In this document: one piece after another, positions 8,846 to 27,540 of the stretch
Position numbering within the stretch: position 1 is the stretch's first letter
Layout of the letters: each line of letters begins with the position of its first letter
Assembly (NCBI GenBank): GCA_052034405.1
Contig: JBPOIO010000004.1
Location: 751-64,750, forward strand
Reading direction: 5' to 3'
DNA from: Candidatus Magasanikiibacteriota bacterium
GTDB lineage: Bacteria; Patescibacteriota; Patescibacteriia; Magasanikbacterales; UBA922
Length of the DNA stretch: 64,000 nucleotides
Made by a program: the position numbers and the translations under genes
Notes under the pieces: generated by a model
The model's input: only the letters and a program-made list of their open reading frames with translations
Told to the model about the DNA's origin: nothing
Database searches by the model: none

Positions 8846-8872
8846 CACCCAAAAAGGGTGGTTTTATTTTGA
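8846..8872 (+). terminator. rho-independent terminator downstream of radA
   Basis: Hairpin ccaccc-aaaaa-gggtgg followed by a T-run. Confidence 0.5.
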
Positions 8873-8992
8873 TTTTTCTCGCGCTCGCCTCCTCGAAGGT
8901 CGATCGTTGCATTCGCTCGGTGAAGAGCGCGAGAGGTGCCCGTCTGAGGGGCTGGGTGGGCCGTCGCACGAGGCGACGTCGGTGGGCGCGGG

Positions 8993-9295: not shown

Positions 9296-9440
9296 GATCG
9301 CCCCGATGATGGAATACAATTCCAATTCGCTCACGAGAACAAACTTTCTTTGAAATGTGGCAGCGCCCACTCTTACGAAGCCCTTCGCAAAAGCTTTTCT
9401 GCCAAATCCGCCGCCAGTATAGCATAAACAATAAAAAAAT

Positions 9441-9465
9441 CAAGGTCTTTTGAACCTTGATATTC
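9441..9465 (-). terminator. hairpin terminator downstream of guaB (minus strand)
   Basis: Inverted repeat atcaaggtc-ttttga-accttgat with an A/T run. It also overlaps a candidate -35 for the small ORF at 8993. Confidence 0.4.
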
Positions 9466-9478
9466 TTGAGTTATTAAC

Positions 9479-10906: not shown

Positions 10907-10931
10907 ACAATGCAGTGATAAAAAATAAATA

Positions 10932-13112: not shown

Positions 13113-13184
13113 GCACTCGTCGTTCAATGGATAGGACGCTAGTTTGCGGAACTAGCAATCTAAGTTCGATTCTTAGCGAGTGCA
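13113..13184 (+). tRNA. tRNA-Arg, anticodon GCG (read from loop TTGCGGA)
   Basis: 72-nt cloverleaf folded by hand. The acceptor stem GCACTCG/CGAGTGC is perfect. The D-stem is GTTC/GGAC with GG in the loop. The anticodon stem CTAGT/ACTAG is perfect. The T-stem is CTAAG/CTTAG with a TTCGATT loop, and the discriminator is A. No CCA is encoded. Confidence 0.8.
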
Positions 13185-14669
13185 CACGTCGGGAAGTTGC
13201 GCCAAAGCGCGACTTACCTGGAACGGATACTTTGCTTCAACTAGCAGAGTTTTTTGTTTCAGCGCGAGGTTCGAGAAGAGGGTCTGGCAGACCTCGCGTT
13301 TCTTCTCGGGCTCGCCAGCTTCGAACTTTTTCTTCGCTAGAACTGCGAACGAAATCCCCTCCATCAAGGGTTCGATGAGTCCCGCGACTGGACTGGCTCG
13401 TTCCAGTTGCGCACGGAGCGCAATCTGCTCGCTTGTGAGGGCTCTGCGGTCCTCATCAAGCTCCTCGCCGGTAATGCGACCCTCAGCAGCTAGATGACGA
13501 AGGTTTCGGAGCTTCTCGTCGTTCTTCACCAGTTTCGCTTCGACCGTTTGGACGACCCTCGACTCCGAATCGCAGACCTCAGCGCGAACGCTCCTCAGCT
13601 CGTCCAGCACGGCCTCCGCTACGTCAGGCGGGAGAGTGAGATCGTTGATGCTCAACGCGAGTTGCTCTTCAAGTGACACTTGCTCGACGGACGGCTCGTC
13701 GCAGTAGAGATATGCACGACTCTTTCGGCAGCAATGGTAGTACGTGTAGCGGGTTCCGAATCGGTTGACCTTGTTCTCCGCAGTGACGACGGACGCACAA
13801 GAACCGCATCTCAATATGCCACGGTATGGAAACCGGTTCGTTTGTGGGCGCGGTTCAGATGCACCCAGGCGCTTGAACTGCTCCTGTACTTCCTCGAACT
13901 CGGCCCAGGAGACGGCGGCGGGATGCGTGCCGGGGAACGATCCCTCCTTCCGAACCATCAGCCCGGCATAGAACGGGTCGCGCAGTGTCCGGTACAACAA
14001 CGACTGGGAAATCAACTTCCCACCGTGGCTCCGCATCACCGGAGTCGTCAGGTGCCACTCCTTGCGGGCTCGGTTGAGGATATCGGACATTGGCACCCCC
14101 ATTCGCCGCAATCGAAACGCCTCTCGAATTAGAGGAAGTCGCACCGGATCAGCCAGGAGCTTCATTGTCGAACGGTCGCGGGTGTAGCCAATTTTCGGAG
14201 CACCAGGCCAAAGGCCCTGTAGCAGTGCCTGCTTGTTGCCACGACATATGTTCTTGCGGAGGTCATCAATGTCTTTCGTGGCCATCCCGAAGATGATGGA
14301 CATCATGAGCTTGTCGTCACCTGACCCAGTGAACGCCCGCTCGGGCGTGAGGATCTCCTTGATCGCTCCGGTGCCGAGCAGCCACATGATGGAGCCACCA
14401 TCGATGGGGTTCCTCGCCAGACGGTTGAGATGCCAGCACAAGACTGCGTCGGCTTTCTTCGCGTTGAGCATGGCCATGACTCTTGCGAACTCTGGCCGGC
14501 CTGGTTCCTTCGCAGACCGCGTTTCGCGGATCGGCTCCCCCACGATGAGAAGATTGCGGGCCTGAGCAAATGAGAGAAGCTCCCGCTCCTGGGCTGGTAT
14601 TGAGAGCTGCTGCTTCCCGTCGTCGAGCGTGGATTTCCGCACGTAGACTACGTATTTCAATGGGTTCAT
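13173..14669 (-). CDS. large serine recombinase (integrase) of the GC-rich island
   Basis: N-terminal resolvase catalytic motif YVRKST..QQLSIPAQ with the serine nucleophile. It also has a recombinase domain, a zinc ribbon (CGSCASV...YYHCC) and a coiled-coil. Its stop codon lies inside the tRNA T-stem. Confidence 0.9.
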   Translation of the reverse strand: MNPLKYVVYVRKSTLDDGKQQLSIPAQERELLSFAQARNLLIVGEPIRETRSAKEPGRPEFARVMAMLNAKKADAVLCWHLNRLARNPIDGGSIMWLLGTGAIKEILTPERAFTGSGDDKLMMSIIFGMATKDIDDLRKNICRGNKQALLQGLWPGAPKIGYTRDRSTMKLLADPVRLPLIREAFRLRRMGVPMSDILNRARKEWHLTTPVMRSHGGKLISQSLLYRTLRDPFYAGLMVRKEGSFPGTHPAAVSWAEFEEVQEQFKRLGASEPRPQTNRFPYRGILRCGSCASVVTAENKVNRFGTRYTYYHCCRKSRAYLYCDEPSVEQVSLEEQLALSINDLTLPPDVAEAVLDELRSVRAEVCDSESRVVQTVEAKLVKNDEKLRNLRHLAAEGRITGEELDEDRRALTSEQIALRAQLERASPVAGLIEPLMEGISFAVLAKKKFEAGEPEKKREVCQTLFSNLALKQKTLLVEAKYPFQVSRALAQLPDVCTR

Positions 14670-14685
14670 ATTGTTGTCAAGTTAG

Positions 14686-14892
14686 TTAGTCAAAGAGGAC
14701 CACGTAGAAAGCTGCCACGAGGTCCTTCGCTACGATTCTGAGCTCGGCCGGTGACAAATCCCGTGGATGGTGTGGGTCACTGCGAAGGGCTTCACCAAGC
14801 CGAATGAGGAAGGCGGCGCTGGGCTCGTAGTTGCCGAGACATGCTAACCTCATACGCTGTGATTTGTGGTCATTAGATGAGTGCATATGCAT
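14686..14892 (-). CDS. hypothetical small protein next to the integrase (possible excisionase/RDF-like accessory)
   Basis: 68-aa ORF immediately upstream of and co-oriented with the recombinase. No motif. The functional guess is by position only. Confidence 0.3.
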   Translation of the reverse strand: MHMHSSNDHKSQRMRLACLGNYEPSAAFLIRLGEALRSDPHHPRDLSPAELRIVAKDLVAAFYVVLFD

Positions 14893-14950
14893 TCATCGTA
14901 ACAACTCATTGCTTGGTCGTCCCGTCGCACCGTGATGCGAAAATGAACAA

Positions 14951-14980
14951 AAGAAGAACTCCACGACCGGAGTTCTTCTT
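14951..14980 (-). terminator. perfect 12-bp-stem hairpin (aagaagaactcc/ggagttcttctt), terminator-like on the minus strand
   Basis: Perfect inverted repeat with a 6-nt loop. On the minus strand it is followed by ttgttcatttt. It sits between the transfer-gene block and the integrase pair. Confidence 0.35.
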
Positions 14981-15242
14981 CATGCTTGTCATCTCTCTTC
15001 TTCTGCCCTGTGGATAGCGTGGTCAGAATCCGACCATCGTGCTACGGGACTACATCTTGCGGCTATGAGAAGATATACTATGTAAGCCGCGAAATCGGGC
15101 AAGACGAGAGTTTGAAAATGTCGTCACCCCAGTCTCGCGGAAATATGTGCCCTAGGCAGGCCATTCATCCCAACAAGAGAGGAGGTGACATTAGGTAGAC
15201 TACAACTTGTGCATATTCTGTCAAGTGTAGGTACCAATAGCT

Positions 15243-15944
15243 ATGACAAACAATGAATCAGAACAACGCGTGCTGAGCGAGAAATCGCTCGTGTTCAACG
15301 TGGAAGTTCTTCGCAAGAACTTCAGCAAGCACGTGGTCACGCAAGAAGACCTCGCCACCATGACCGGCGTGCCGAGGAGCGCGGCTGCGATGGAGTCCTC
15401 CCAACTGCCCGGCCGTGGTGTTCGCCGGAGTTCGTTCGTCATAGCGTGTCTGGTCAAGGTCAACGTGGGGTCGCCCTTGGGCCAGTCCGCCGGCTTCGCG
15501 TCGAAGCACCTCCTTCTCGTCCGTGGTTTCCCCGAGTCGGTTCGGGGCGGCCTTCGCCGCCTCAGATTCGGTTCGCGCGACCGGACACGACTCCGCGCTC
15601 AGCACCTGCGAGGCGTCGGGGGTCATCGTGGTGGTCGGTCGCGTCTTCACGAGCCCGACGCTACGCGCGGCGGATCGAGTGGTCGAGCGCGCGAAGGGTG
15701 CCGTGGTGTCTGCCCCTGGTGTGGCCCCCTGGTGCGAGCCCCCGGTCAGTCCGACACACCACCCCTCGGCTTCTCATCTTCTTGGAATCACTCGGTTTTC
15801 AAGGAACGCAAAACAAGGAATCAGCCCCTTCTTGGGGCATCTCGTTCATCCGGCGCACGGACGCGGACGACCGCGCCACTCTGCGCTTCCACCTCGCGTT
15901 CGCCAAGGTCCGCGAGCCGGTACCAGCCGCTCGTCAGCGCGTAG
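15243..15944 (+). CDS. XRE-family HTH regulator (N-terminal about 65 aa); the long Arg/Gly-rich C-terminal continuation is doubtful
   Basis: LRKNFSKHVVTQEDLATMTGVPRSAAAMES resembles an XRE HTH. The rest of the 233-aa frame is low-complexity, typical of open frames in GC-rich DNA, and overlaps the Replic_Relax gene on the opposite strand. Confidence 0.4.
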   Translation: MTNNESEQRVLSEKSLVFNVEVLRKNFSKHVVTQEDLATMTGVPRSAAAMESSQLPGRGVRRSSFVIACLVKVNVGSPLGQSAGFASKHLLLVRGFPESVRGGLRRLRFGSRDRTRLRAQHLRGVGGHRGGRSRLHEPDATRGGSSGRAREGCRGVCPWCGPLVRAPGQSDTPPLGFSSSWNHSVFKERKTRNQPLLGASRSSGARTRTTAPLCASTSRSPRSASRYQPLVSA

Positions 15945-16693
15945 TTCACCGGCTCGGCCTTCAGGTCGAGGACCCGGCCGAAGACCGGACCACCGATGTC
16001 CACCGCCTGGCGGCCCAGGGCGGCGAGCCGCTTCACCGATTTCGCCACGATGAGCATGCCGTCGGGGACCAGGCCCGCGATCTCCATGCGCGCGGCGTGC
16101 ATCCGGGCGAAGAAGGCGATCTTGTTCTCGGCCACGTACTGCGGCCCCTCGGTGCCCGTGTCGATCTCCACGACGAAGCTGCGCCGGCGCTCGGCGTCCT
16201 CGACCGTGAGGACCGCGTCGGGCCTGTACTTGAGGATGGTCGGGAGGTGGGCCTGGTCAAGCTCCCACTCGAACTGGTAGCGAACCAGGCGCACCCCTCG
16301 GGACAACTCGCACTCGGCCACGACCCGGCTCCAGAAGCGGACGTTCATCAGGTGGTGCTCGCCCGGACCCGAATACTCGGCCGGCGCGCTGCGGGGCCTC
16401 TCGTCGAGGCCGAGGTCCTCGAAGAGCGCGATCTGACCCTTGCGGTCGAGCACGTACCGCGTCTCTTCGTGCAGCGCGTTGCAGTACCCGGCCAGGTACC
16501 CGGTATCCATGAGCTTCTTGAGTCGCCGGCGGGCCATCGCCACGGACGGGAAGTAGAGCGGCACGACGTCGGACACGGTGAGCACCTTGGCCTTTCGGAG
16601 GGCCTCGAAGAGCGCGAGGTCGCGCTCCTGGAGATCAGCCGCGCGTCCGGCGCGGCCGTTCCCCGATTGCCTGCCGAGTCCACGTCCCGCCAT
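15821..16693 (-). CDS. replication-relaxation family protein (Replic_Relax-like)
   Basis: N-terminal wHTH-like LQERDLALFEALRKAKVLTVSDVVPLYF...ARRRLKKLMDTGYL, then a conserved core (EWELD, YRPDAVL, FVVEIDTGTE) as in plasmid/ICE replication-relaxation proteins. Confidence 0.55.
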   Translation of the reverse strand: MAGRGLGRQSGNGRAGRAADLQERDLALFEALRKAKVLTVSDVVPLYFPSVAMARRRLKKLMDTGYLAGYCNALHEETRYVLDRKGQIALFEDLGLDERPRSAPAEYSGPGEHHLMNVRFWSRVVAECELSRGVRLVRYQFEWELDQAHLPTILKYRPDAVLTVEDAERRRSFVVEIDTGTEGPQYVAENKIAFFARMHAARMEIAGLVPDGMLIVAKSVKRLAALGRQAVDIGGPVFGRVLDLKAEPVNYALTSGWYRLADLGEREVEAQSGAVVRVRAPDERDAPRRG

Positions 16694-16705
16694 GAGTGTG
16701 AGCCG

Positions 16706-17026
16706 CTACACCTTCGGGTTGACGATGGACACCCCGCAGGTGTGGCAGTTGACGTAGGCGGGCGCGGTCTTGCAGGCCGGGCAGGCCGACCACACCCAGC
16801 CGTCGCGCGTGGCGCCGCAGGTCGAGCACTCCCAGAGCCCGTCCGCCGGTTGGGGCGGGCAGCCCCGCTTGCACTTCAACTCGCGCTTGACCACGGCCAT
16901 GCCGACCTTCCCGGTCTTGTAGGTCCACTTGCCAAAGGAGATCAGCTTGAAGAGCGCGGCCAGCGAGAAGACCACGGCCGCGTACATGAGCTGAAACGGC
17001 GCCAGAATCCAGCGAAGTTCATCCAT
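16706..17026 (-). CDS. small membrane protein with C-terminal Cys-rich zinc-ribbon-like domain
   Basis: It has one TM helix followed by CxxC...CxxC...CxxC spacing (CSTCG, CPAC, CHTCG). Confidence 0.4.
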   Translation of the reverse strand: MDELRWILAPFQLMYAAVVFSLAALFKLISFGKWTYKTGKVGMAVVKRELKCKRGCPPQPADGLWECSTCGATRDGWVWSACPACKTAPAYVNCHTCGVSIVNPKV

Positions 17027-17050
17027 GCCTTGCCCTCTTTCGAGTTGTTT

Positions 17051-19075
17051 CTATCCGATGAACGGCCCTCTTCGCGTCCGGTTGCCCTTGGGGCTCTGGC
17101 CTTCGTGGCCCTTCTCCTCCTTTCCCGTAGCCCGTTGCCCATCGCCCAGGGGGACTGGCGGCGGAGCCGTTTGGCCGCCAGGTTCGCGTTTGGGTTGCTG
17201 CTCGTCTGGCCGAGGCGCAGCCTCGACCTCCTCTTGTCGCCCCTCAGATTCCTTCGCTGGCCGCGGCCTCACCTTGCCCGGAGGTGGCCGCTGCGGATTG
17301 CGCCGATCAGGCTTCGAGCCTGGCTCCCTGACCTCGTGGGGCACCCGGTCGCGCAGATCGCGCCTCGGGTCGCGAGCGAAGCCGCCCGCCACTTCCTTGA
17401 TGTGGTGCTTGCGCTTCTCGATGGCCTCGTTGAGGACGTGCGCTGGCGTGCCGCAGCCGTACCCACGGCACAGGGCGCGCAGCTCGTCGGAGGCCCGGTC
17501 AGCGGCCCGGCGCAGATCGTCGAACGGGACCTCGGGCGCAATGAGCCGTGCTGCCGGCCGCCCCAGCGCCCGCGGGTAGAACCAAAAGTGGCGCTTCGGC
17601 AGACGAATCAGCTCTTCGACGTGGCGCGCTCGCTGCTCGCTGGGGCGCTCGACGCGGGTCTCGTAGCGTGGGCCGTCGAGATCTCGCCGAACGCGGCAGT
17701 GCTCCGAGACCGGGAACATGTGGGAGAAGCGCCGGGCATCGCTCGGCGACTGCTGGAACACGGTCTGGTAGCCGCAGGAGTTCTCGATGGTCGCGAGCAG
17801 CGCCGAGCTGCGGCTCGCCACCTGCGCCGGCAACTGGTTGATGAGCCAGAGCGCCACGTTCTTGTGCCGGGCTAGGGTGAGCAGGCTCTCGAAGTCGCCG
17901 GCCAGGTCCGCGTCGAGACCCAGCCACCACTCGTCGATGGCCGCGATCACGGGCCGGCGGGTATCACGTCGGGAGTAGATGGCCCGGGCAAGCCCACGCA
18001 CGAAGACCGAGATCCAGAACCGGGTCAGGAACTCGGCGCCGCGCGGAGCCCCGCCCAGGTTGACCACGGTGAGCGGCCCTTCAAGTAGGGAGGCATAGGA
18101 CACGCACCCTGGGGCGCAGAGCACGCGCGCCGTATCCTCGAAGAGCAGCAGGTCGAGCCGGGCCACCACGGCCTGCACCGACTCGGTCGGCTCCTGCGGG
18201 AACCGGTGGGTGAAGTACTCGCGGATCTCATAGTCCTCGACTTCCCTGAGGAGGCCGTTCAGGTACCGGTCGTTGATGAGCGCCGAGCGCAACTCGAGGA
18301 TGGACAACCCGCCGACCGAAAGCATGAGGCGCAGGGCGTTGAGGAGAATCCCCATCATCCGGACGCCCCAGTCACCCCCGGCCCCGCCGAGGGCCTCCCC
18401 GATGAGGTTGGCGATCTCCTTGGCGTGAAGCGAGCGCGAGATGCCGCCGACGGGAGCAAGCAGGTTCATTTCCGGGAGGTTGCTTTCGTCGAAGGGCGCG
18501 ACGACGTTCAGGCCACGAATGACCTCGATGATGTCGTCTTCTTCAGCGTCTCGGAGCATGGCCGGGAGGAGCAGATCGGTGATCCACTCGGCGCTCTCGC
18601 CCTTGGCGTCCACGTGCAAGAGGGACCACGGCATGCCCGGCCCGATGAGCTGCATCTCCTCGGCGAAGGTCTGCGCGCTCTTGCCCCGGCCCGTGGCCCC
18701 GACGATCCAGCGGTGGACGCCGTACAACTCCGAGACCGGTACGGCGACCGGGATGTCCTCGGCCTCGGCCAGGGTGCCCACGAGGACGCGAACACCATCC
18801 TCACCGGCCCGCTCGTCGAGATCGTTCAGAAGGTGGACTTCAGGCGGCGGGTCGAGGCTCTCAAAGTGGTGCTCGATGGCCGCCTCGACCAGCTTGCGCT
18901 TGGAGCCCACGAAGAGCCGCCGAAGGCCGGCTTCGAGCAGGCTCACGAGAGGATCCGCGTTTGCTGGAGAAAGAGGCGCATGACGACGCTTGCTCCTGGT
19001 TGCCGAGCCCCTGCCCGGGCCACGAAGCAAAGCGTAGGACGATTTCCGGGATCCGCAACTTTTTTTCTGAAGCAC
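17051..19075 (-). CDS. FtsK/TraD/VirD4-like P-loop ATPase (type IV coupling-protein-like) with Arg/Pro-rich C-terminal tail
   Basis: Walker A is GATGRGKS and Walker B is VIAAIDEWW. A WLINQLPAQ motif resembles the T4CP Q-motif. The TraM-recognition-like C-region is low-complexity. Confidence 0.5.
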   Translation of the reverse strand: MLQKKSCGSRKSSYALLRGPGRGSATRSKRRHAPLSPANADPLVSLLEAGLRRLFVGSKRKLVEAAIEHHFESLDPPPEVHLLNDLDERAGEDGVRVLVGTLAEAEDIPVAVPVSELYGVHRWIVGATGRGKSAQTFAEEMQLIGPGMPWSLLHVDAKGESAEWITDLLLPAMLRDAEEDDIIEVIRGLNVVAPFDESNLPEMNLLAPVGGISRSLHAKEIANLIGEALGGAGGDWGVRMMGILLNALRLMLSVGGLSILELRSALINDRYLNGLLREVEDYEIREYFTHRFPQEPTESVQAVVARLDLLLFEDTARVLCAPGCVSYASLLEGPLTVVNLGGAPRGAEFLTRFWISVFVRGLARAIYSRRDTRRPVIAAIDEWWLGLDADLAGDFESLLTLARHKNVALWLINQLPAQVASRSSALLATIENSCGYQTVFQQSPSDARRFSHMFPVSEHCRVRRDLDGPRYETRVERPSEQRARHVEELIRLPKRHFWFYPRALGRPAARLIAPEVPFDDLRRAADRASDELRALCRGYGCGTPAHVLNEAIEKRKHHIKEVAGGFARDPRRDLRDRVPHEVREPGSKPDRRNPQRPPPGKVRPRPAKESEGRQEEVEAAPRPDEQQPKREPGGQTAPPPVPLGDGQRATGKEEKGHEGQSPKGNRTRRGPFIG

Positions 19076-19116
19076 GCGCCAGGAGGAATGTGAGGCTGCG
19101 GGGACGGACGCCGGAA

Positions 19117-20121
19117 CTACGAGAGAAGAGCAAGAACGCCTTCGAGTTCGCTCCGGAGTGCCTTCTTCTCGGCGTCCGACAGCTCCTTGGCGTTGAACTT
19201 GACGGGGCGCAAGCGCACGTCACCGATCTTCAGGTTGGTGCCGTCCGAGCGGAAGATGCTCGGGAGCGACTTCTTCTCCGATGCGCCCCGGAACGCCTCA
19301 TTGACGTGCCGAACGATCTGCGGGATGGAGAGTTCCTCGTTGTTGATGCGCGTGACCCACTCGATGTAGTGGAGCTTCGGGTACCTAGCCTTGAGCTTCT
19401 TCAGGGTCAGGGCATGGGTCGCCTTGAAGGTGGTCCCTTCCTCCCCGATGGCCGTCTGCACCTCAGCCGGCAGGTCGAGGAGCGCCAAGAGGTTGTTCTT
19501 CTGGCGCTTGGTGAGGTTCATGAGCTCAGCGACCTCGAAGCTCTTGTACCCCGAGTCCTGGTACCGCTTGATCACGTAGGCCCGGTCGATGTCCGAGTAG
19601 GTCTTGCGGGCCATGTTCTCGAGGACCGAGGCCCGGAACGCCTCCTGGTCGTCCACCAGGTCCCGGCGAACGTAGGCGGAGATGAAATCCGCCTTCAGCT
19701 CAGTGAGTGCCGTAGCCCGACGGAAGCCCGAGACGAGCTGCCACTTGAACCCGTCCTCGGGGCGCGGGTGAGGACGAACGACGGCCGGGATCTGCTGACC
19801 ACTCTCGCGGATGCTCTTGACGAGGTCGGCCACCCGCACGACCGCTCGGAAGCGGTACGTCACGTCGCCGAGGTCGATTTCGCTGAGCGGGACCTGACGA
19901 ACCACCAAGTCGTTGTCGAGGACCGTGGGGACGTCCACTGGGACCCGGCTCGCACCAGGCGGACGACCGCGGCGCTTCGCCGCAGATGGAGCGGCCTCGG
20001 TTGTGGGAGCGGGGGGCGTCGGCTCGGGTGTGGAGGTTTCCATGACCCTACTAGACGGAGCCTTCGCGGCGACTTTGCGATCTTTTTTCAACTGGCTCGG
20101 TTTTGGTGCGGGTCGGGGCAT
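19117..20121 (-). CDS. ParB/Sulfiredoxin-domain protein (ParB-like partition/nuclease)
   Basis: N-terminal ParB motif (LSEIDLGDVTYRFR ... VSGFRRATAL) followed by HTH-like and C-terminal helical regions. The N-terminus is Pro/Ala-rich. Confidence 0.65.
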   Translation of the reverse strand: MPRPAPKPSQLKKDRKVAAKAPSSRVMETSTPEPTPPAPTTEAAPSAAKRRGRPPGASRVPVDVPTVLDNDLVVRQVPLSEIDLGDVTYRFRAVVRVADLVKSIRESGQQIPAVVRPHPRPEDGFKWQLVSGFRRATALTELKADFISAYVRRDLVDDQEAFRASVLENMARKTYSDIDRAYVIKRYQDSGYKSFEVAELMNLTKRQKNNLLALLDLPAEVQTAIGEEGTTFKATHALTLKKLKARYPKLHYIEWVTRINNEELSIPQIVRHVNEAFRGASEKKSLPSIFRSDGTNLKIGDVRLRPVKFNAKELSDAEKKALRSELEGVLALLS

Positions 20122-20182
20122 GATTATCTCCGCAGGTGATTGTGGAGAAGGTCATACGCCGACGAACAAGTGGCCGCAAGGT

Positions 20183-20198
20183 GGGAAATCGATTTCCC
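20183..20198. promoter_or_regulatory. perfect 16-bp palindrome GGGAAATCGATTTCCC in the divergent promoter region (candidate operator)
   Basis: Perfect palindrome between the divergent parB-like gene and the plus-strand operon. A near-identical copy is at 25386–25401. Confidence 0.4.
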
Positions 20199-20297
20199 GG
20201 GGCTTACCGGTTCCGCGACGCTTGACGGTTGGTCATCAGGCTGCTAACCATCCCGACAAGCTATGAAATCCAGCACAATAACTTGTAACAACACGGT

Positions 20298-20999
20298 GTG
20301 GAGCGCCTGTTGAGTGATCGTGAGTACGACTCGACAACGGAGGTCACAAGCGAGATCATTCAGCTAGCTGAAGCCGAATCGTTGGAAGAAGCCGTCGCAA
20401 AGTTGAACATGCTTCCGCTTACCGGCACCTCGAAAATTGCACTCAAGATGCTGTCCCCGTGGACCCGCGGCGGTGCCGAGACGTACGTGACAACATTTGA
20501 TATCACGGCGGGGGCGGAGTGTGCTCCTTGCATTCTAAAGGCCTGTGTGGCGTTCGCCATCACGCCTGGCGGAGTAGAAGCAATTCTGGAGTCGTGGATC
20601 GCCCGTAGACGGTTACTTGCGGCCCATGGAGCAGCGGTCCCGCGGCTCTATGCATACGGCCGCGGGGTCGTTCTCGAGGAACGACTTCCTTACAGAGCGC
20701 AGGACTTGATCGCTGCCAAATCTGCGACACGCCCCGCTGTATTAGCAAGCCTTTTCAAGTTGACCCGCGCCTTGGAGCAGGTACGATTCCAGCCCGTATC
20801 AATACTCCCTGATGTCATGTCGGACGGAGAACGGGCCGTTCTGGTGGATTTCGGCCAGGATCTTGGAGACCCGATGCCTGCCGAAACCGACGTAGACACC
20901 TACGCCCGCACGGTCGCCTCGCTCACACAACTCGGAATAAATCTCAGCCCCGAAGAGCAGGAACTTACACTTGCCGTGCATAACGGCCACGTACACTAG
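20298..20999 (+). CDS. hypothetical protein, first gene of the island operon (weak protein-kinase-like features)
   Basis: 233-aa ORF. Weak resemblance to kinase motifs (CILKAC as a possible beta3 Lys, VLVDFGQD as a possible DFG). Speculative. Its stop overlaps the next gene. Confidence 0.35.
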   Translation: MERLLSDREYDSTTEVTSEIIQLAEAESLEEAVAKLNMLPLTGTSKIALKMLSPWTRGGAETYVTTFDITAGAECAPCILKACVAFAITPGGVEAILESWIARRRLLAAHGAAVPRLYAYGRGVVLEERLPYRAQDLIAAKSATRPAVLASLFKLTRALEQVRFQPVSILPDVMSDGERAVLVDFGQDLGDPMPAETDVDTYARTVASLTQLGINLSPEEQELTLAVHNGHVH

Positions 21000-22005
21000 G
21001 ACCAGAATGAAAATTCGTGACGCAGTCGAAGCAGCGCATTCCGTGAACGACGGGGCAACCGTAGTTGCCCCCCTAGATCTCGGCGGGAACGAGCAGAACC
21101 AGCTTCTGATGTTCCTGAAACCGGAGACCTTCCTGAGCAACGATAGGGAAACGCCAGCAACGGTGGCCGATCTTGCTGACCGCCTCATCAACTCGTTCCG
21201 ACTGCGGATGTCTGGGATCATCGGAGTGTCCGGGCCGACGCTCGGGTCACTCCGTGCAATGGACAAGCACTACGGCTTCATCAACAAGATGTCACGGGCT
21301 GCATCCGTCTCGCTGGATGCCAAAACGCTTGAAGGTCTTCGGTCCCGGTATGCCACTGGACCGGATGGCGCGGTTCTGGGTGGCCACGAGTTCCTTGAGC
21401 GTCATCAGGACTGGGATGCCCAGAAGCTGGACACGCTGTGGGCGACGAAGAAGAGCGACCGAATTCGAAGTGGCCTGTATGCTCAGCTCTACGACATTCC
21501 CGGCACTGGACCGACCATCCTGCTCAACGGCTTTCATCCTGCACAACTTGAACACTTCACTGCGCCAGGTCGAAAGGTCATCCTGATCGTGCTGAACAGC
21601 GACCTGCCCTGGTCTGTTCTGCGACGACGGATGCTCGGTGACACCTTCCCGGAGAAGGCGGTTGCGGGCTCGTTCAGGCGCGCACTCTACGACACCCGAG
21701 AGAAGTTGGGCTTGCCGGACGTCTCAATCGCCAACAATTTCGCGCATCTCTCGGCTGGACCATTCGAAGCTGCGTTTGAACTGAACAACTTCCTCGGATC
21801 TGTCTGCCCAGACCAGTTCACAATTGCGAACAGCCGATTGTGGAAGCACGGCCTGCGAATCGGGTTGACCAACGACCAGTTGGCTGGGTCACTCAACAAT
21901 CCGCCCGTGGAGGTCGCTGGAACGCGGCTTCCGCTCTTCGACGCTACCGAAGATTGTGACTCGCTGACCTCTCTTCAGCTGCTGGCATCGCACGGCGCGG
22001 GCTGA
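20971..22005 (+). CDS. nucleoside-diphosphate-kinase-like protein with an approximately 70-aa insertion (start probably at Met 21007)
   Basis: By-eye alignment to Ndk. LMFLKPETF matches IIKPNAV. FHPAQLEHFTAPGRKVILIVL matches FF.GLVEFMTSGPIVV.VL. RRRMLGDTFPEKAVAGSFRRALYD matches LLGATNPA.ALAGTLRADYA. NNFAHLSAGPFEAAFEL matches NGTHGSDSVESAAREI, with the catalytic His retained. Confidence 0.5.
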   Translation: MPCITATYTRTRMKIRDAVEAAHSVNDGATVVAPLDLGGNEQNQLLMFLKPETFLSNDRETPATVADLADRLINSFRLRMSGIIGVSGPTLGSLRAMDKHYGFINKMSRAASVSLDAKTLEGLRSRYATGPDGAVLGGHEFLERHQDWDAQKLDTLWATKKSDRIRSGLYAQLYDIPGTGPTILLNGFHPAQLEHFTAPGRKVILIVLNSDLPWSVLRRRMLGDTFPEKAVAGSFRRALYDTREKLGLPDVSIANNFAHLSAGPFEAAFELNNFLGSVCPDQFTIANSRLWKHGLRIGLTNDQLAGSLNNPPVEVAGTRLPLFDATEDCDSLTSLQLLASHGAG

Positions 22006-22018
22006 ATCGAGGCGACCT

Positions 22019-22873
22019 ATGGCGTCAAGTGCACCACGCGGCTGGCTCGGAAAAACGGCTGGCGTATTTAGCCTACACGAGTCTGACCGTACGTGCGGAT
22101 CGTATATTTCTATCCGAGACGCTGCCACGATTCTAAAGGTCGACCCTGCCGAACTCGACCACTACCGGCTCGCACAGCACGGCGAGCAAGATTTCACGAC
22201 AGACAAGACGCTTGGTCGCGCATGGGCTTCTGGCCAGATCACGAGTCCTCGCACATCCATGCGGCGCGGAAATTCCATGGTAAGTTTCGACGAACTCATC
22301 GTGCTCACTCTCATTGAGTTGACCTTGCCTGGTGCAGCCGTTCATCCGCAAAAAGAGGTTGATAGGTTCCTGATAGACTTTCTCGTGGAACACAATGGCG
22401 TAACAATTGCGCTTGAGTTTTGCGGACCGCACCACTTCATTCGACGACACCCAGGAGAGCGCACGCCCCTGGACCCGCGTGTTCGCGCTGAGCGCATTTC
22501 GCGGCTGCTGAACGTCGAGTGCGTTATCTGGCCGTATTGGGTCCAACGATGTGAGTCAAACGTCCGAGCCCTTTTTGATTCCTCAGTGCGCGGAATCGCC
22601 AGCGTTTGGTCAACAAGCGCCCAGTTCGGCAACTTTTCATTTCCTGACTCTCACAAAGTGATTCAGGACATCAACGCGCGCTTTCGAGTGGAACGGGAAA
22701 CTGGCATCGGGTACATGTACACTGACGAAATCGTGAGCAAGCCAGTGCACCCCGTGGTCTCCCAGATTAGACGGGGACGGGAGTCCGTTTCAAAACTCGT
22801 CCCGCCCGGTTCCACATCGTCGAAGCGATACTGGGTTCCACGGGTGCTTTGGTCCGTAATCGACGGTGGCTAG
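22019..22873 (+). CDS. DUF559/Vsr-like restriction-endonuclease-fold protein
   Basis: DRFLIDFLVEHNGVTIALEFCGPHHF followed by DPRVRAERISRLLNVECVIWPYW matches the DUF559 pattern (DF..x..L.iE.DG..H ... D..R...L...G..V.R). The usual Asp is replaced by Cys (EFCG). Confidence 0.45.
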   Translation: MASSAPRGWLGKTAGVFSLHESDRTCGSYISIRDAATILKVDPAELDHYRLAQHGEQDFTTDKTLGRAWASGQITSPRTSMRRGNSMVSFDELIVLTLIELTLPGAAVHPQKEVDRFLIDFLVEHNGVTIALEFCGPHHFIRRHPGERTPLDPRVRAERISRLLNVECVIWPYWVQRCESNVRALFDSSVRGIASVWSTSAQFGNFSFPDSHKVIQDINARFRVERETGIGYMYTDEIVSKPVHPVVSQIRRGRESVSKLVPPGSTSSKRYWVPRVLWSVIDGG

Positions 22874-24641
22874 CATGACTGACGACTTTCACGTCGACGC
22901 CGGCCTAATTCAAGCAGCGCAGGCGCTGGCGCGCATCATGCGAGAGCAGGAGTTCTGCCTCTACCTAACCGGGCTCGCCGCGTCAGGGAAGACCGCCGCA
23001 GCAGAAATCATTTCGCGGATGACGGGTGTGCCCGTTGTTGACTCCGGCCTGGTATTCCGACTCGCTGCCTATCTTTGCGTACATGTTCCTGTCGCAGCAG
23101 AGAATCCGGGCGTGCTCGCCCGCCTCTTGGGTGAGCACACAATCAAGGTCGTGAACGGGCAATATCGAATTCTGTCTGGTGACTCGGACATTACGGAGAG
23201 ACTTCAGGCGCCAGATGTCGGCTCTCAGGCGACTGCAACGGCCGCGGAACCTAGACTTCGAGAAGTGATTCTTACCTTTCTAAGATCTAGGACGAAGGCG
23301 CCAGCCATCGTGGCTGCACGCGGCGTTACTGAACCACTCACAACAGGAAACTTCGTTCAGATAGAATTGCGAGCAGACCTAGAGGTTCGCGCGGCTCGGC
23401 GCGCTAAGCAAAGTGGTTCGCCAGTTGCTACGATTCGAAAGAGCATACGAGCTCGAGACGACCGCGACCAACGCGGCCCGTCACGGTATCCAAGCGCTGA
23501 CTTTGTTGACAGTTCGAAACTGACCCTTCATGAGACCGTAGCCCGAGTTGTTGAAAGAACGACCGCGCGGATTTCTCGCCTTCTGAGCATCTCTGAATTT
23601 AGGAAAGTTGAGTTCAACAACGCTGAACAGCTGAGCAACCCCTTGCTTGTACGTCTCTGGGCCGAAGCACAGGCAGGACTTGAGGAGGAAGAAAGCACAC
23701 AGGGCATCCCGAAGGGGCACGCGAAAGCACGTTTTCTCCTCAATCTCTCGCGTTACTCGTCGCTGGATCTACTGGGACTGTCGCATTCATGGATGCCTGG
23801 GGCTCTGCCGGGACTTGTGGACACAGCCGCTGCTGTCCCCGCAAACGACTTGCTGATGCGCGAGTGTGCTAGAACGGTGGAAGAGCGGGCCAAGTCGATT
23901 CGGCGATTCATGGAAGCGACACGCTTTCCGAGTGCTATTTTTGATGAAAGATCCCTTCGGCTTGAGCTTGTTCGAGGGCGACCAGTGGGGACCTCGGAAG
24001 GTGGAGAGGTGGTAGAACACTATCACCTCCGTGACACGTCCCCAGAAGTCGGCATGTGGCTCGAAAACAATCTTCACTACTTAGGTGCAGCACGCCTCGA
24101 CACCACTCATAGAGTCGCGCTTGTAGAAGCGTCGAGTGAATTTCCTGTCCTGTACTTGTCATTCGCTCCAAACACTCGCAAGTACATGGAGCCGCTCCTG
24201 TGGCGAGTCGGACTCAGGTTAGAGGAGGTTGCTGTCGCAGTACGTGGCTACGGAACGCCCCGTTGTCCTCGGAATGCGATGGCATGGTTCCTTCGTGAGG
24301 CATGTGCTCGGGTCAAGCAAGACTTTCCACATCTCCGTGCCGTTGTCACAGACATCAACCCCAACTGGGGCTTCAGCGGATCGTCCTTTCAGGAGGCCGG
24401 ATTTGTCACGTTGGGAATGAAGTACGCTCCCACAAGCTTTGTCGCGGGCGATTATTCCCCGCGACGGAGCCTCGAGCGCCAACCCGGAAGCCGCGCGGCA
24501 GTTGGGAACAGACTGCCGCTGGTTCCAACGTTGGTCATGATTAGGCCATTTCCCAAGGAATCCATTCTTCGAACACGTATTGCAGAGTCGGTGGTTGATG
24601 GTGTATACTTGATACCTCGGGACTTGTATGAAGAAAAATAG
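22866..24641 (+). CDS. cytidylate-kinase-like P-loop kinase fused to a C-terminal GNAT-like acetyltransferase domain
   Basis: N-terminal about 235 aa align by eye to Cmk: LYLTGLAASGKTAAAEIISRMTGVPVVDSGLVFRLAA versus ITIDGPSGAGKGT...LLDSGAIYRVLA; LSGDSDITERLQAPDVGSQATATAAEPRLRE; IRARDDRDQRGPSRYP versus IKERDDRDRNRAVAPL. The C-terminus has a GNAT-like motif A (VRGYGTP) and NPNWGFSGSSFQEAGF. Confidence 0.55.
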   Translation: MASMTDDFHVDAGLIQAAQALARIMREQEFCLYLTGLAASGKTAAAEIISRMTGVPVVDSGLVFRLAAYLCVHVPVAAENPGVLARLLGEHTIKVVNGQYRILSGDSDITERLQAPDVGSQATATAAEPRLREVILTFLRSRTKAPAIVAARGVTEPLTTGNFVQIELRADLEVRAARRAKQSGSPVATIRKSIRARDDRDQRGPSRYPSADFVDSSKLTLHETVARVVERTTARISRLLSISEFRKVEFNNAEQLSNPLLVRLWAEAQAGLEEEESTQGIPKGHAKARFLLNLSRYSSLDLLGLSHSWMPGALPGLVDTAAAVPANDLLMRECARTVEERAKSIRRFMEATRFPSAIFDERSLRLELVRGRPVGTSEGGEVVEHYHLRDTSPEVGMWLENNLHYLGAARLDTTHRVALVEASSEFPVLYLSFAPNTRKYMEPLLWRVGLRLEEVAVAVRGYGTPRCPRNAMAWFLREACARVKQDFPHLRAVVTDINPNWGFSGSSFQEAGFVTLGMKYAPTSFVAGDYSPRRSLERQPGSRAAVGNRLPLVPTLVMIRPFPKESILRTRIAESVVDGVYLIPRDLYEEK

Positions 24642-24644
24642 CCT

Positions 24645-25217
24645 ATGAGAATCCTTGTAGCCACCCGCAACAGGGACAAATTCAATATCGTCAAGCGCCT
24701 GGTAGAAGCAACTGTGCCGGACGCACATCTTGTTTTTCTCGGCGACACTCCGATCAGCGGAGACGTTGTTGAAGCAGGGTCAATCCACGAACGCGCCCGG
24801 CAAAAGGCAGTGTACTTTTGGGGGCGCTTGGAGTGGTCTACAATAGCCGACGACTTCGATTCAGTGCTGGCGGTGGACGACGGGCTGAGCGTCGGCGGCG
24901 CGGAAGCCACGCCTCACTCCAAAGAGATGACAGAACGAATACTCAGTGAGGCGTGGCCAACGGGAACTAAGGTGGATGTCGTTCGCGCGTTTTGCCTGAT
25001 AAGGCGTGGGGAAGTGCCGCGTGTGGAACTCACGGCGATCCCGTTTGTATTTGTAGGCAATCCACATGGCGTCCAACGTGAAGACGGTACGTATCCGTTG
25101 AGCCAGGTCCTTAGCCCCGAGGGAATGGCTCAACCAGTGTCTCAACTCACAAACGATGAAGAAGATGCATTCTACCTTCGCCACTCTCGGGAGCCGCTCG
25201 TTGCGCTGTTCTCATAG
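24645..25217 (+). CDS. Ham1/ITPase-like (RdgB-family) non-canonical NTP pyrophosphatase-like protein
   Basis: MRILVATRNRDKFNIVKRLV versus MKIVFATGNKGK; TIADDFDSVLAVDDGLSVGGAEAT versus AIADDSGLAVDVLGGAPG. It starts 4 nt after the upstream stop. Confidence 0.5.
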   Translation: MRILVATRNRDKFNIVKRLVEATVPDAHLVFLGDTPISGDVVEAGSIHERARQKAVYFWGRLEWSTIADDFDSVLAVDDGLSVGGAEATPHSKEMTERILSEAWPTGTKVDVVRAFCLIRRGEVPRVELTAIPFVFVGNPHGVQREDGTYPLSQVLSPEGMAQPVSQLTNDEEDAFYLRHSREPLVALFS

Positions 25218-25260
25218 TGATCGGCACCCCAAATCATGGACATTGGCAATCAAGTAATTG

Positions 25261-25297
25261 CTCGACCAGGGTCCTGACTTCTATCCTCGCTGTGCAC
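25261..25297 (+). repeat. 37-bp direct repeat copy 1 (CTCGACCAGGGTCCTGACTTCTATCCTCGCTGTGCAC), candidate att/junction site
   Basis: 33 of 37 positions are identical to 27494–27530. Weaker similarity extends about 14 nt upstream. It contains a GTGCAC core. Confidence 0.6.
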
Positions 25298-25385
25298 TAA
25301 CCGTGAGCATGTCGAACTGAGCATGCTCTAACGAAACATCGCGTAATTGCGATGTTTTCATTTTCTAAGCAGTCGTTCGAGCACG

Positions 25386-25401
25386 CGGGAAATCGACTTC
25401 C
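25386..25401. promoter_or_regulatory. second copy of the GGGAAATCGAyTTCCC palindrome (one mismatch) upstream of the PD-(D/E)xK gene
   Basis: GGGAAATCGACTTCCC, about 57 nt upstream of the ATG at 25458. It is adjacent to the palindrome GAGCATGCTC at 25311–25340. Confidence 0.35.
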
Positions 25402-25457
25402 CAGCAATTCGAACAGGGCTTGTTGGCCTTTCTCTGATATGGTAACATTTAACTAAT

Positions 25458-26291
25458 ATGTTGAAATCACACATGGCTGCCCGCGAGGGCGTACTGCTTG
25501 CCAGCAGTAAGGTCGCAGCAAATACAGGGCATTCGCTTCATAAGGGAACGCCTCGCGAGATCTTTATCCGCGAGTTCCTGGAAAGCCATCTCGCCGAGAC
25601 CGTCGCGATCGGCACTGGCGAAGTGATCGACTCAGAATCGATGCCGAATCCGCCACCGACAAGACAGCGCAATCAGTACGACATCATCATTTACAAGAAG
25701 AATTATCCAAAACTCGCCATCGGCGGTGGGATCTCGGCGTTTCTTTGCGAGTCGGTTGTAGCGACAATCGAAGTGAAATCCACTCTCACTAAGGATGAGC
25801 TACAATCGAGTGCAAGAGCCGCGCGAGCTGCGAAGCTACTCAAACCCAGTAGAGTCGAGGCTTTCAGGACAGGCTACCACCCGCCGTCGATCTTGAACTA
25901 CGTCGTGGCATATGACGGACCTGCATCAATGAAGACTGTGGCCGGTTGGCTACAGGATGCTGACGCGTACGCTGGAGTGCCAGGGCATCCGGATCTAAGT
26001 GGTGCCGACAGAACTCAGAAGGCGAGCCCGAGCCTCGATGGCGTGTTCGTGATGGGCAAAGGGTTCATGTTGTACGGCAATTCACCACTTTCTATTCTTT
26101 CGGTGGACGACCGCAAACGTGCGTCGAACCTCAAATGGGAATTCGCTGACTGCGAAGTTGGAAGTCTGTTCTTGCTATTCGTAACGTTGAGCCAAGTCGT
26201 GAGTGGGCACTCTGCGACCTGGCTCGACGCTGGGCCATACCTCAGCGGATTCTCTGTCCAAAATGATTCAATTGGCATGGTCGGCTGGTAG
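25458..26291 (+). CDS. PD-(D/E)xK nuclease-fold hypothetical protein
   Basis: DIIIYKK ... ESVVATIEVKST gives the D...(E)xK arrangement typical of restriction-endonuclease-like folds. No closer family recognised. Confidence 0.4.
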   Translation: MLKSHMAAREGVLLASSKVAANTGHSLHKGTPREIFIREFLESHLAETVAIGTGEVIDSESMPNPPPTRQRNQYDIIIYKKNYPKLAIGGGISAFLCESVVATIEVKSTLTKDELQSSARAARAAKLLKPSRVEAFRTGYHPPSILNYVVAYDGPASMKTVAGWLQDADAYAGVPGHPDLSGADRTQKASPSLDGVFVMGKGFMLYGNSPLSILSVDDRKRASNLKWEFADCEVGSLFLLFVTLSQVVSGHSATWLDAGPYLSGFSVQNDSIGMVGW

Positions 26292-27380
26292 TACCAAGCT
26301 CGGTTGCAGGTTATTACTGAGCTGTATGCGGAGCACTAGTTCGTCAAGTCGCATCTTCTCTTCAAGCGCGTCCATCTGTTCTGATGGCACCCCAGTTGCG
26401 CTTCTAAGCTGTGATCGAACCATCGTCTCTAGTTTCTCCGCGTCAGTGCTGAATCGACAGCCCGTTCGATGGCACCGATAATAGCGATAGACTCGTCCAT
26501 TTCTCTTCATGTGTTGTTCGCCGACAAGGAATCCCAAACAATTTGGACAAGTGACCTTTCGAGCGAGTAGGAAGTGCAAGTGCTTCCGAGGCTGCCCGCC
26601 GCTGTGCTTCTGCCGAAAGACTTCCTGGCTTCGGTCGAATATCTCCTTGGTGATCAATGATGGATGAGTACCGGTGTACTCAACACCCACGACGACCATC
26701 TTCCCCATGTAGAATGAGTTGTGGAGGATCGCACAGACCTTTGCTGCACTGACTTTCTTGCCGTGCCGGCTGACGAGGCCAGCACGGTGCAGTTCGTCAG
26801 CAAGCTGAGCGCTTCCGACTTGACCAGTGGCCCAGCGCTCGAAAGCCATCTTTATGAATCTTGCTCGGGCAGGGTCAACGACGACTTTGCCGTGCTCCTT
26901 GAGATACCCAAGAGGAGGAAGTCCACACCATCCTCCACGAAGGAGCTTCTCTTCGATCCCCCTCTTGACTTGTTGCGCCAGGTTGGCGCTGTAGAATTCT
27001 GCTTGTGCTGACATAATACGTTCAATGAATTGACCAACTGGAGTTTCTTCGCAGTTCTCCACGGCCGAAACGATTCGAACACCGTGGCGACGGAGCCGCT
27101 CCTTGATGGTCAGATAAGTAAACATGTCGCGTGCCAGTCGGTCGAGACGGTGAACGAAGAAGATGTTCACGTCGCGACTGCGACACGCAACGTCGAGTCC
27201 AGAGAGAAGGCCTGTTCGTCCACGGAATGATGTGCCACTCGCCACGTCCGTGAACGTCCCCGCAGCAACCCAACCTCGCTCAGAACAAAGTCGTCGAAGC
27301 GTGCGCAGTTGTGCTGGAATTGAAAGATCCTTCTCCCCTTGCTTGCTCGTTGAAACGCGAGCGTAGAGTATGACTGACAT
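26268..27380 (-). CDS. serine recombinase (resolvase/integrase family, 370 aa) of the sub-element
   Basis: It has the YARVSTSKQ catalytic motif, a recombinase domain and a zinc ribbon (CPNC...YRCHRTGC). Confidence 0.85.
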   Translation of the reverse strand: MSVILYARVSTSKQGEKDLSIPAQLRTLRRLCSERGWVAAGTFTDVASGTSFRGRTGLLSGLDVACRSRDVNIFFVHRLDRLARDMFTYLTIKERLRRHGVRIVSAVENCEETPVGQFIERIMSAQAEFYSANLAQQVKRGIEEKLLRGGWCGLPPLGYLKEHGKVVVDPARARFIKMAFERWATGQVGSAQLADELHRAGLVSRHGKKVSAAKVCAILHNSFYMGKMVVVGVEYTGTHPSLITKEIFDRSQEVFRQKHSGGQPRKHLHFLLARKVTCPNCLGFLVGEQHMKRNGRVYRYYRCHRTGCRFSTDAEKLETMVRSQLRSATGVPSEQMDALEEKMRLDELVLRIQLSNNLQPSLVLPADHAN

Positions 27381-27493
27381 ATGATGTTGAGTTAATGACT
27401 ACACTCTTCATCATACACCTTTGATGGTACAGCGTGATGTTCATACTGTCCCGTAGCACCGTGATTCGTTTCTGAACATCCAGTCAACATCTT

Positions 27494-27530
27494 CTCGACC
27501 AGGGTTCTGACTTCTCTTCTCGCGGTGCAC
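27494..27530 (+). repeat. 37-bp direct repeat copy 2 (CTCGACCAGGGTTCTGACTTCTCTTCTCGCGGTGCAC) at the island/host junction
   Basis: It is followed immediately by AT-rich host sequence. GTGCACAC is shared with the tRNA 3' end. Confidence 0.6.
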
Positions 27531-27540
27531 ACATAAAAAA

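Follow-up and report, generated by a model that had tools for sequence, protein, structure and literature searches.

Nucleoside diphosphate kinases (NDKs; PF00334) bind nucleotide and phosphate through Lys12, Tyr52, Arg88, Thr94 and Arg105 (E. coli-type numbering). In the T-even phages, the host NDK acts together with a dCTPase, a dCMP hydroxymethylase and a deoxynucleoside monophosphate kinase in the synthesis of hydroxymethyl-dCTP, an example of how modified deoxynucleoside triphosphates (dNTPs) are supplied. Mom of phage Mu is a GNAT-fold DNA adenine N6-carbamoylmethyl transferase with a catalytic Ser124 and a helix-turn-helix-like insertion, and Mom chemistry is, to our knowledge, so far known only on finished DNA. 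In viperin and pVip-CMPK2 systems, dedicated nucleotide kinases are linked to a nucleotide-altering enzyme, and the genetic linkage of viperins with nucleoside monophosphate (NMP) kinases such as CMPK2 (bioRxiv 10.1101/2023.09.13.557418) provides a precedent for kinases tied to nucleotide-modifying immune enzymes. Here we describe a locus with the same logic, found in a 64,000-nucleotide stretch of a Candidatus Magasanikiibacteriota genome (the window), where an integrated mobile element of 14,353 bp (13180..27532) carries a five-gene cassette whose second gene (21007..22005, plus strand) encodes a 332-amino-acid (aa) NDK-like protein, the target of this study and a representative of what we call the long form. 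With a probability of about 0.62, we propose that the target is a working NDK and that it performs one step of a cassette making a modified (deoxy)nucleoside triphosphate, or (d)NTP, for the element.

Compared with the viperin and T-even systems, the modifier of this cassette is a predicted Mom-like GNAT protein, not a radical S-adenosylmethionine (SAM) enzyme or a thymidylate-synthase-like hydroxymethylase, and the element carries its own gene for the NDK step. A search against the defence models of PADLOC v2 gave no match for any of the five cassette proteins, and no relatives of the cassette were found among INPHARED phages or in IMG/VR.

The longest mechanical open reading frame (ORF) at this place, 20971..22005 (plus strand, 344 aa), which the initial annotation had reported as the gene, begins with TTG. 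The frame is real, but the true start is probably the ATG at 21007, giving 332 rather than 344 aa, because this codon lies 8 nt past the stop of the upstream gene, which terminates at 20999, has an AGGA 5 nt upstream, and agrees with both the deposited NCBI protein P0001 (332 aa, 100% identical to the target from this ATG) and the gene calls, from the same start, on six near-identical metagenomic contigs (L007–L012). Residue numbers are counted from the methionine encoded by this ATG. Scans for consensus promoters and terminators did no better than chance.

Alignment, profile and conservation evidence agree that the conserved NDK blocks, listed previously from the letters of the sequence, are present and collinear with the order in NDKs. 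Block 1 is FLKPE, in which K38-P39 of the KPE motif (21118..21123, plus strand) aligns with the KPD of short NDKs, K38 corresponding to NDK Lys12 in strand β1. Block 2 is MDKHY, in which H88-Y89 (21268..21273, plus strand) aligns with the EHY of short NDKs and Y89 corresponds to Tyr52 of the NDK HY motif. Block 3, LEHFTAPGRKVILIVLNSD, is equivalent to F..L..FMtSGPvv and strand β3; block 4, RRMLGDTFPEKAVAGSFR, holds R206, T213 and R224; and block 5, NNFAHLSAG...FE (NNFAHLSAGPFEAAFELNNF), holds N244, H247, S249 and E258. The catalytic half of the protein, comprising R206, G211-D-T213, S222-x-R224, N244-x-x-H247-x-S249 and E258 (21622..21780, plus strand), was delimited by a profile match to NDKs of the PDB, by hhalign and by conservation, and H247 (nt 21745-21747, plus strand) is the predicted phospho-histidine.

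At E<=1e-3, the target has at least 755 homologues, nearly all 327–348 aa long and without a Pfam domain, two of which bear the JGI label 'nucleoside diphosphate kinase'. A 40-sequence alignment of the family contains 42 invariant columns. Ten of the 11 matches of the family profile in the PDB were NDKs, the best being 1xqi, an insertion-bearing archaeal NDK from Pyrobaculum aerophilum (E=0.0036), aligned over the catalytic half. Comparison of the family with two short NDKs by hhalign gave a probability of 89.5% (E=2e-6), and in the reverse direction, when 2,525 ORFs were searched with a hidden Markov model built from the two short NDKs, the only matches were members of the long-form family (E=1e-7 to 1e-3). 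A single-sequence phmmer search of the PDB with the target returned nothing but a spurious catenin match, and profile searches with it against PHROGs and PADLOC gave nothing significant.

The AlphaFold2 model of the target is of high confidence, with a predicted local distance difference test score (pLDDT) of 95.2 and a predicted template-modelling score (pTM) of 0.90, and has the ferredoxin-like core fold of NDKs. All of the top 50 Foldseek matches of this model in the PDB were NDKs, at a probability of 1.0 and target-normalised template-modelling (TM) scores of 0.54–0.77. Across 121 diverse family members, the equivalents of all nine catalytic or nucleotide-binding NDK residues are essentially invariant: K38, H88, Y89, N244, H247 and S249 are each present in 120/121 members and E258 in 118/121, T213 and R224 are essentially invariant, and position 206 is R or K. 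The N-x-x-H-x-S motif and the glutamate of helix α4 align with both PDB NDKs and the short NDKs of related cassettes. Whereas R/K206, T213 and R224 were placed by profile alignment, K38 and Y89 were placed, less rigorously, by motif order and secondary structure. The long form has, by these comparisons, the same core fold as canonical NDKs and the 1xqi enzyme, with the active-site residues K, Y, R, T, R, N, H, S and E in the same order, and we conclude from profiles and model that the fold and catalytic apparatus of the target are those of an NDK. Profile, fold and catalytic-residue evidence agree in this respect with the initial annotation, which had called the protein a diverged NDK; the fold comparison that it proposed returned NDKs for all of its top 50 matches, and neither non-collinear blocks nor an unrelated fold was found.

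At 332 aa, with five added segments, the target lies outside the size range of NDKs, which are about 135–180 aa long and assemble as hexamers or tetramers. Judged from motif spacing relative to 179-aa short NDKs and from the secondary structure of the model, the roughly 190 additional residues are spread over five places: an N-terminal extension of about 29 aa, a stretch between K38 and Y89 that is about 11 aa longer than in short NDKs, a main insertion, a Kpn-loop region about 10 aa longer, as is common to 1xqi-type NDKs, and a C-terminal extension of about 65 aa (residues 267–332; 21805..22002, plus strand) with invariant N298-P299 and E315. The main insertion follows the HY motif (residues ~90–176; 21274..21534, plus strand), adds about 80 aa beyond canonical NDKs, and was delimited by model secondary structure, invariants and motif spacing; it is modelled as several helices and a small sheet, contains the family-invariant H127 and W145, and is directly followed by the invariant H177 of an NGFHP motif. 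The large insertion previously noted is accordingly present at about 80 aa, but the extra length as a whole is not one insertion. Family-specific invariants outside the NDK catalytic set are H127, W145, H177, W202, N298 and E315. Like the long form, 1xqi and the 179-aa NDKs of related cassettes carry inserted residues that follow the HY motif at the same position, together with a longer Kpn-loop region; the long form differs from canonical and 1xqi-type NDKs in being some 190 residues longer, in its larger insertion (~80 versus ~30 aa), and in N- and C-terminal extensions (~29 and ~65 aa) with invariants of their own. We considered the long insertion as an expansion of that of the short NDKs, based on an AKTLEG/GKTLEG match, and set this aside, as the stretch is unconserved in the family.

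The strongest available argument for function comes from the cassette, which consists of five tightly packed plus-strand genes (20298–25217). We found six independent cassettes: that of the window and those of L095 (the same element as L103), L096, L097, L098 and L101. Each of the six has the complete set of five genes. At the position of the target, the window, L097, L098 and L101 encode the long form, and L095/L103 and L096 encode a 179-aa short NDK that is readily recognised by PF00334 (E=1.6e-34 and 4.6e-37). This interchange of long and short proteins at a fixed slot argues that the long protein performs the NDK reaction. In one of these loci (L098:8123-9990, a long-read contig), the long NDK-like gene and the 284-aa gene described below are each broken into two or three frame-shifted pieces, through either a fault in the assembly or genuine decay; the same contig has intact fusion and 190-aa genes.

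Among the other cassette members, the central enzyme is a 591-aa fusion protein (22866..24641, plus strand), identified by Pfam, an AlphaFold2 model and Foldseek. Its mechanical GTG start at 22866 overlaps the upstream stop, and the deposited protein P0124 (588 aa) begins at an ATG three codons on (22875). The N-terminal part (residues ~30–235) matches Cytidylate_kin (PF02224; E=4.4e-22, 79.3 bits versus a cut-off of 26) over profile positions 5–208 of 211, and 12 members of the fusion family, which comprises 13 proteins in all, share without exception its P-loop GLAASGK and its DSG..R and RD..D..R-type motifs. The conserved C-terminal region of about 350 aa (nt 23583-24638, plus strand) matched no Pfam family at E<=10 and no PDB sequence. 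Its AlphaFold2 model (pLDDT 87.4) gave phage Mu Mom (8bv8) as the first and second Foldseek matches (E=9.5e-9 and 6.9e-8; target-normalised TM 0.64–0.68), with generic GNATs trailing at E>=3e-5 and TmcA also among the matches. As modelled, this domain is a GNAT fold closest to Mu Mom. Both are GNAT folds carried by mobile elements, and modification of a nucleobase by the fusion domain is putative; unlike Mu Mom, the domain is fused to a cytidylate kinase (Cmk), and its gene keeps company with those of an NDK and a Ham1-like protein.

The last cassette gene (24645..25217, plus strand) encodes a 190-aa protein with an N-terminal ATxNxxK motif that is weakly similar to Ham1/ITPase proteins, and the five cassette copies are 58–61% identical. 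The 284-aa protein (22019..22873, plus strand) gave a weak hint of a restriction-endonuclease-like central domain. The first gene (20298..20999, plus strand) encodes a 233-aa protein of unassigned fold; a reading of its motifs GAETY, KAC and VDFGxDLG as kinase-like remained unsupported by profile searches.

The gene for this 233-aa protein directly adjoins the NDK gene not only in the cassettes, and throughout its family of 28 proteins it always lies directly beside an NDK gene. In L099, the pair, with a long NDK, stands beside a MoaA/viperin-like radical SAM enzyme, as in viperin-type systems, together with a PNP_UDP-type nucleosidase fusion and an ArdC gene. In L100, from a Pseudonocardiales metagenome-assembled genome (MAG; GCA_052390495.1), the pair, with a short NDK, belongs to a nucleotide-related cluster at 3544-13000 with an ASCH protein, BpsA_C, a Ham1-QueA fusion (556 aa) and an AdoMet decarboxylase, as well as an adenosine deaminase on the opposite strand and an archaeal-type adenylate kinase that matches the PADLOC VakA model. 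The pair also occurs in L016, L019, L020 and L054. Because it recurs beside different nucleotide-modifying enzymes, the pair looks like a portable phosphorylation unit attached to varied enzymes of this kind.

Taken as a pathway, the cassette would work as follows. The Mom-like GNAT domain would acylate or aminoacylate the exocyclic amine of a (d)CMP-type nucleotide; the fused Cmk domain would convert the modified NMP to the diphosphate (NDP); and the long NDK, probably together with the 233-aa protein, would convert the NDP to the triphosphate (NTP). The Ham1-like protein might generate the NMP substrate from NTPs or clear unwanted NTPs from the pool. The resulting modified (d)NTP would serve the element, either as a building block of its DNA that helps it to escape restriction, or as an analogue that acts against viruses or inhibits competitors. 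A mononucleotide substrate is favoured because the Mom-like GNAT is fused to an NMP kinase. What we infer in this proposal is that the kinase is active, how the steps follow one another, what the substrate and product are, and what biological purpose is served. The initial annotation had suggested supply of an unusual NTP to a neighbouring enzyme, and this suggestion gains support from its context, namely the Cmk-Mom neighbour, the Ham1-like protein, the interchange at the NDK slot and the recurring pair, from which the supply itself is still inferred.

Several points weigh against the proposal that the target is a working NDK in a modified-(d)NTP pathway. The long form scores below both Pfam and NCBIfam thresholds for canonical NDKs: the target has no match to the Pfam NDK profile PF00334 at E<=1, so that the Pfam check proposed earlier came out negative, and it reaches 11.4 bits against NCBIfam PRK00668 (cut-off 155), the L097 homologue reaching 13.6 bits versus a cut-off of 27 in the NDK threshold comparison. 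Pairwise single-sequence similarity between the target and a short NDK is weak (z=2.4). The insertion and extensions, with their own invariants, could redirect specificity or function. Even with deeper profiles, neither the 233-aa nor the 284-aa protein could be assigned through the PDB or Pfam, and the Ham1-like assignment, drawn from sequence profiles, is weak (E about 0.01–0.02): the 190-aa protein scores 15.8 bits against Pfam Ham1p_like (cut-off 22.5, E=0.013) over its N-terminal 78 residues only, and the sole PDB match of its family profile is the dITP/XTP pyrophosphatase 6wwd (E=0.022). Most members of the long-form family are stand-alone chromosomal genes of Chloroflexota, the candidate phyla radiation (CPR) and DPANN that lack the cassette, and the family's default may be ordinary NDK activity, not unusual substrates. 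Finally, characterised Mom uses dsDNA as substrate and Gly-tRNA(Gly) as donor, not free nucleotides (PMC13219725), and by analogy the Mom-like domain may act post-synthesis, with the kinases in a different role.

The alternative that survives best, though we regard it as unlikely, is that the element simply carries a general NDP kinase along with Cmk, to raise or rebalance (d)NTP pools during its replication or transfer or for hosts that lack ndk. A fully canonical catalytic site, the ability of a plain short NDK to fill the same slot, and the predominance of stand-alone family members in housekeeping surroundings (rsfS, sucCD, tmk and aIF5B) all fit such an enzyme. What it fails to accommodate is that six of six cassettes link the NDK to four specialised genes, including the Mom-like modifier and the Ham1-like protein, and that the pair of NDK and 233-aa protein recurs beside other nucleotide-modifying enzymes; this explanation is weakened because the boosting of pools alone leaves the gene linkage unexplained.

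A second alternative, which we consider rather improbable, keeps the Mom-like domain on DNA, tRNA or RNA after synthesis and lets the kinases regenerate a cofactor or donor, sense nucleotides, or deplete or poison pools as an effector of defence. It takes its lead from the double-stranded DNA substrate and Gly-tRNA(Gly) donor of characterised Mom, and it would suit the defence and conflict genes that lie beside cassettes (CBASS in L097, TIR in L098, ArdC in L099 and a NucC-like nuclease in the window). However, the GNAT domain is covalently joined to an NMP kinase with intact Cmk motifs, which argues for a shared mononucleotide substrate, the set of Cmk, NDK and NTP pyrophosphatase follows the classic modified-dNTP logic, and viral copies of the cassette were not found in INPHARED or IMG/VR.

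Very improbable, in our judgement, is a repurposed NDK fold that passes the histidine phosphate to a protein, lipid-linked or sugar acceptor, or that has become a nuclease or a DNA-binding protein; the insertion and the C-terminal domain would then form a new substrate site. Such a change of function would account for the invariant, family-specific His, Trp, Asn and Glu residues of the added segments, for a patchily spread module in which the long NDK is accompanied by a DgkB/YegS-type lipid kinase and two unassigned proteins, and for distant plasmid homologues that sit with myo-inositol-1-phosphate synthase and SAM synthetase. It is hard to reconcile with retention of the nucleotide-binding residues K38, Y89, R206, T213, R224 and N244 alongside the catalytic histidine, and with the positional interchangeability of the long form and canonical NDK. 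A chance frame or decayed pseudogene, conceivable as high-GC DNA yields many long spurious ORFs, several of which overlap the target region in other frames, is refuted by the 755 homologues, the 42 invariant columns, the confident model, the 99.98% identity of the target gene between independent samples and its operon-like spacing to its neighbours.

Returning to the proposal of a working long-form NDK within a modified-(d)NTP cassette, we found no description of either the long-form family or the cassette in the literature. The long-form protein is, to judge by the comparisons above, a new structural variant of NDK, and the cassette a new combination of known kinds of enzymes. The long form would represent a widespread unnamed NDK, labelled 'hypothetical' almost everywhere, that occurs in 138 species-representative genomes and is represented by at least 755 protein clusters from Chloroflexota, CPR, DPANN and others, and if it is the working NDK of those lineages, metabolic reconstructions that report ndk as missing need correcting. 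The Mom-like/Cmk fusion always occurs with an NDK and the Ham1-like protein on integrative or conjugative elements, which points to modification at the precursor level; if this is true, the cassette would make modified DNA precursors, or nucleotide analogues with antiviral action, by a new pathway. A more specific version, which we put forward tentatively and at less than even odds, is that the cassette is an undescribed mobile route to N-acylated or N-aminoacylated cytidine-type (d)NTPs through a Cmk-fused Mom-like GNAT acting at the mononucleotide level, and that the long NDK is a second, elaborated NDP kinase lineage, maybe the sole NDK of Caldilineaceae/Anaerolineae, Micrarchaeota and some CPR, missed by annotation pipelines.

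Next, we examined the family at large. In species-representative genomes, a scan yielded 138 relatives, which cluster in Caldilineaceae and Anaerolineae, with further relatives in Peribacteria, Gracilibacteria, Micrarchaeota, Aminicenantes, Omnitrophota, Planctomycetota and Clostridium akagii. Across 80 loci, genes for Cmk-Mom, the 284-aa protein or the 190-aa protein are absent, and the 233-aa gene occurs in four only. We considered and rejected a cross-phylum operon partner conserved throughout the family, as clustering of neighbours gave lineage-specific synteny only. Family genes lie beside rsfS, immediately follow sucC-sucD (L002) and, in C. akagii, the thymidylate kinase gene, and in Micrarchaeota adjoin aIF5B, the tmk and sucCD contexts being consistent with an NDK role. 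In a rough neighbour-joining tree, built without support values, element-borne copies group with sporadic ones from unrelated phyla and are separated from the groups of Chloroflexota and Micrarchaeota. By default, family members probably work as ordinary stand-alone enzymes, perhaps as the NDK of the cell, with the cassette copies as a recruited subset. The earlier view of an accessory operon gene holds for the target, which sits in a conserved cassette, but not for the family, whose members are mostly stand-alone and chromosomal. No canonical ndk was found within the 64-kb window, so the label of paralog used in the initial annotation is putative; for other genomes with the long form, the analysis covered loci of about 13 kb.

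On plasmids, the search returned two distant homologues only, on a Parageobacillus plasmid (L013, NZ_CP040554.1) and on B. thuringiensis pST7-2 (L014, CP016196.1). Both are distant (about 26% identity) and retain K, Y, N, H and S, with some other active-site residues lost. Their clusters share myo-inositol-1-phosphate synthase and SAM synthetase, with SurE, NUDIX and glucose dehydrogenase genes in addition in L013 and short-chain dehydrogenases in L014, and these loci may be small-molecule biosynthesis clusters.

A second module containing the long form comprises a ~465-aa protein, the long NDK-like gene, a ~213-aa protein and a DgkB/YegS-type lipid kinase, with 55–77% protein identity across Omnitrophota, Acidobacteria, Clostridia and Deferrimicrobium. 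It lies at about 4.4–8.4 kb in L029, L063, L078 and L089 and at 0.3–4.6 kb in L038; L029, L038 and L078 share matching ~213-aa proteins, and L038 and L063 share matching lipid kinases. In L029 (Aminicenantes), a B12-binding radical SAM enzyme occupies the upstream place of the module. When L068 (Peribacteria) and L069 (Gracilibacteria) are read with table 11, the long NDK-like gene splits, leaving 133 aa in L068 and nothing that clustered in L069; these breaks are consistent with UGA recoding in these CPR lineages, for which code 25 is needed.

The cassette keeps company with defence genes on mobile elements. In L097, a cyclic-oligonucleotide-based antiphage signalling system (CBASS) pair, CD-NTase and Cap15, directly adjoins it (L097:11216-12749) on a contig with TrwB/TraG-like genes, and TIR and AAA genes lie near the cassette of L098. 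On the window's element, PADLOC matches were confined to a DUF6602 (PD_DExK/NucC-like) protein and a HerA-like ATPase.

The element has the features of a site-specific, tRNA-targeting element, with recombinases, direct-repeat attachment cores and an excised junction, and a backbone like that of actinomycete integrative elements. The 8-bp attL core GTGCACAC (13180..13187, plus strand) lies inside the 3' end of a tRNA-Arg(GCG) gene (13113-13185), and the attR core GTGCACAC, likewise 8 bp, at 27525..27532 (plus strand). A contig from another sample (L008) runs unbroken from window positions 19577-27532 into 13180-14623 at 100% identity, and the join of 27532 to 13180 is therefore the junction of an excised circle. 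At its left and right ends, the element encodes large serine recombinases of 498 aa (13173..14669, minus strand) and 370 aa (26268..27380, minus strand). Its backbone includes a Replic_Relax (replication-relaxation) protein (15821..16693, minus strand) and a HerA/FtsK-like ATPase possibly involved in DNA transfer (17051..19075, minus strand), and a ParB-family gene (19117..20121, minus strand) is transcribed divergently from the cassette. The element has 59.3% GC overall, its region ranging over 55–69% GC within a genome of about 38% and flanks of 38–41%. The attachment cores, the integration at tRNA-Arg, the circular junction, the recombinase, ParB and Replic_Relax genes and the GC contrast bear out the initial annotation in placing the target on a mobile element.

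A near-identical copy of the element in another contig (L007) matches over 8.7 kb at 99.98% and has the same cassette and backbone. Over L007:1-2786, compared with window 13180-15365, a tyrosine integrase and a 263-aa gene replace the 498-aa serine recombinase, and the integration module has been swapped.

Near the right end, a 37-nt direct repeat (25261-25297 and 27494-27530; 89% identical, both copies ending in GTGCAC like the attachment core) flanks a 2.2-kb piece with the gene for a DUF6602/PD-DExK (NucC-like) nuclease (25458..26291, plus strand), which lies outside the conserved cassette, and that for the 370-aa serine recombinase. The DUF6602 gene is absent from the other cassettes, and the piece looks like a separate unit joined to the element end by tandem accretion. 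The host encodes an LCP-family cell-wall protein, and Pseudonocardiales MAGs contain relatives of the 233-aa gene carried by the element; together with the extreme GC contrast, these observations suggest a recent transfer from a high-GC actinobacterial donor to the low-GC host.

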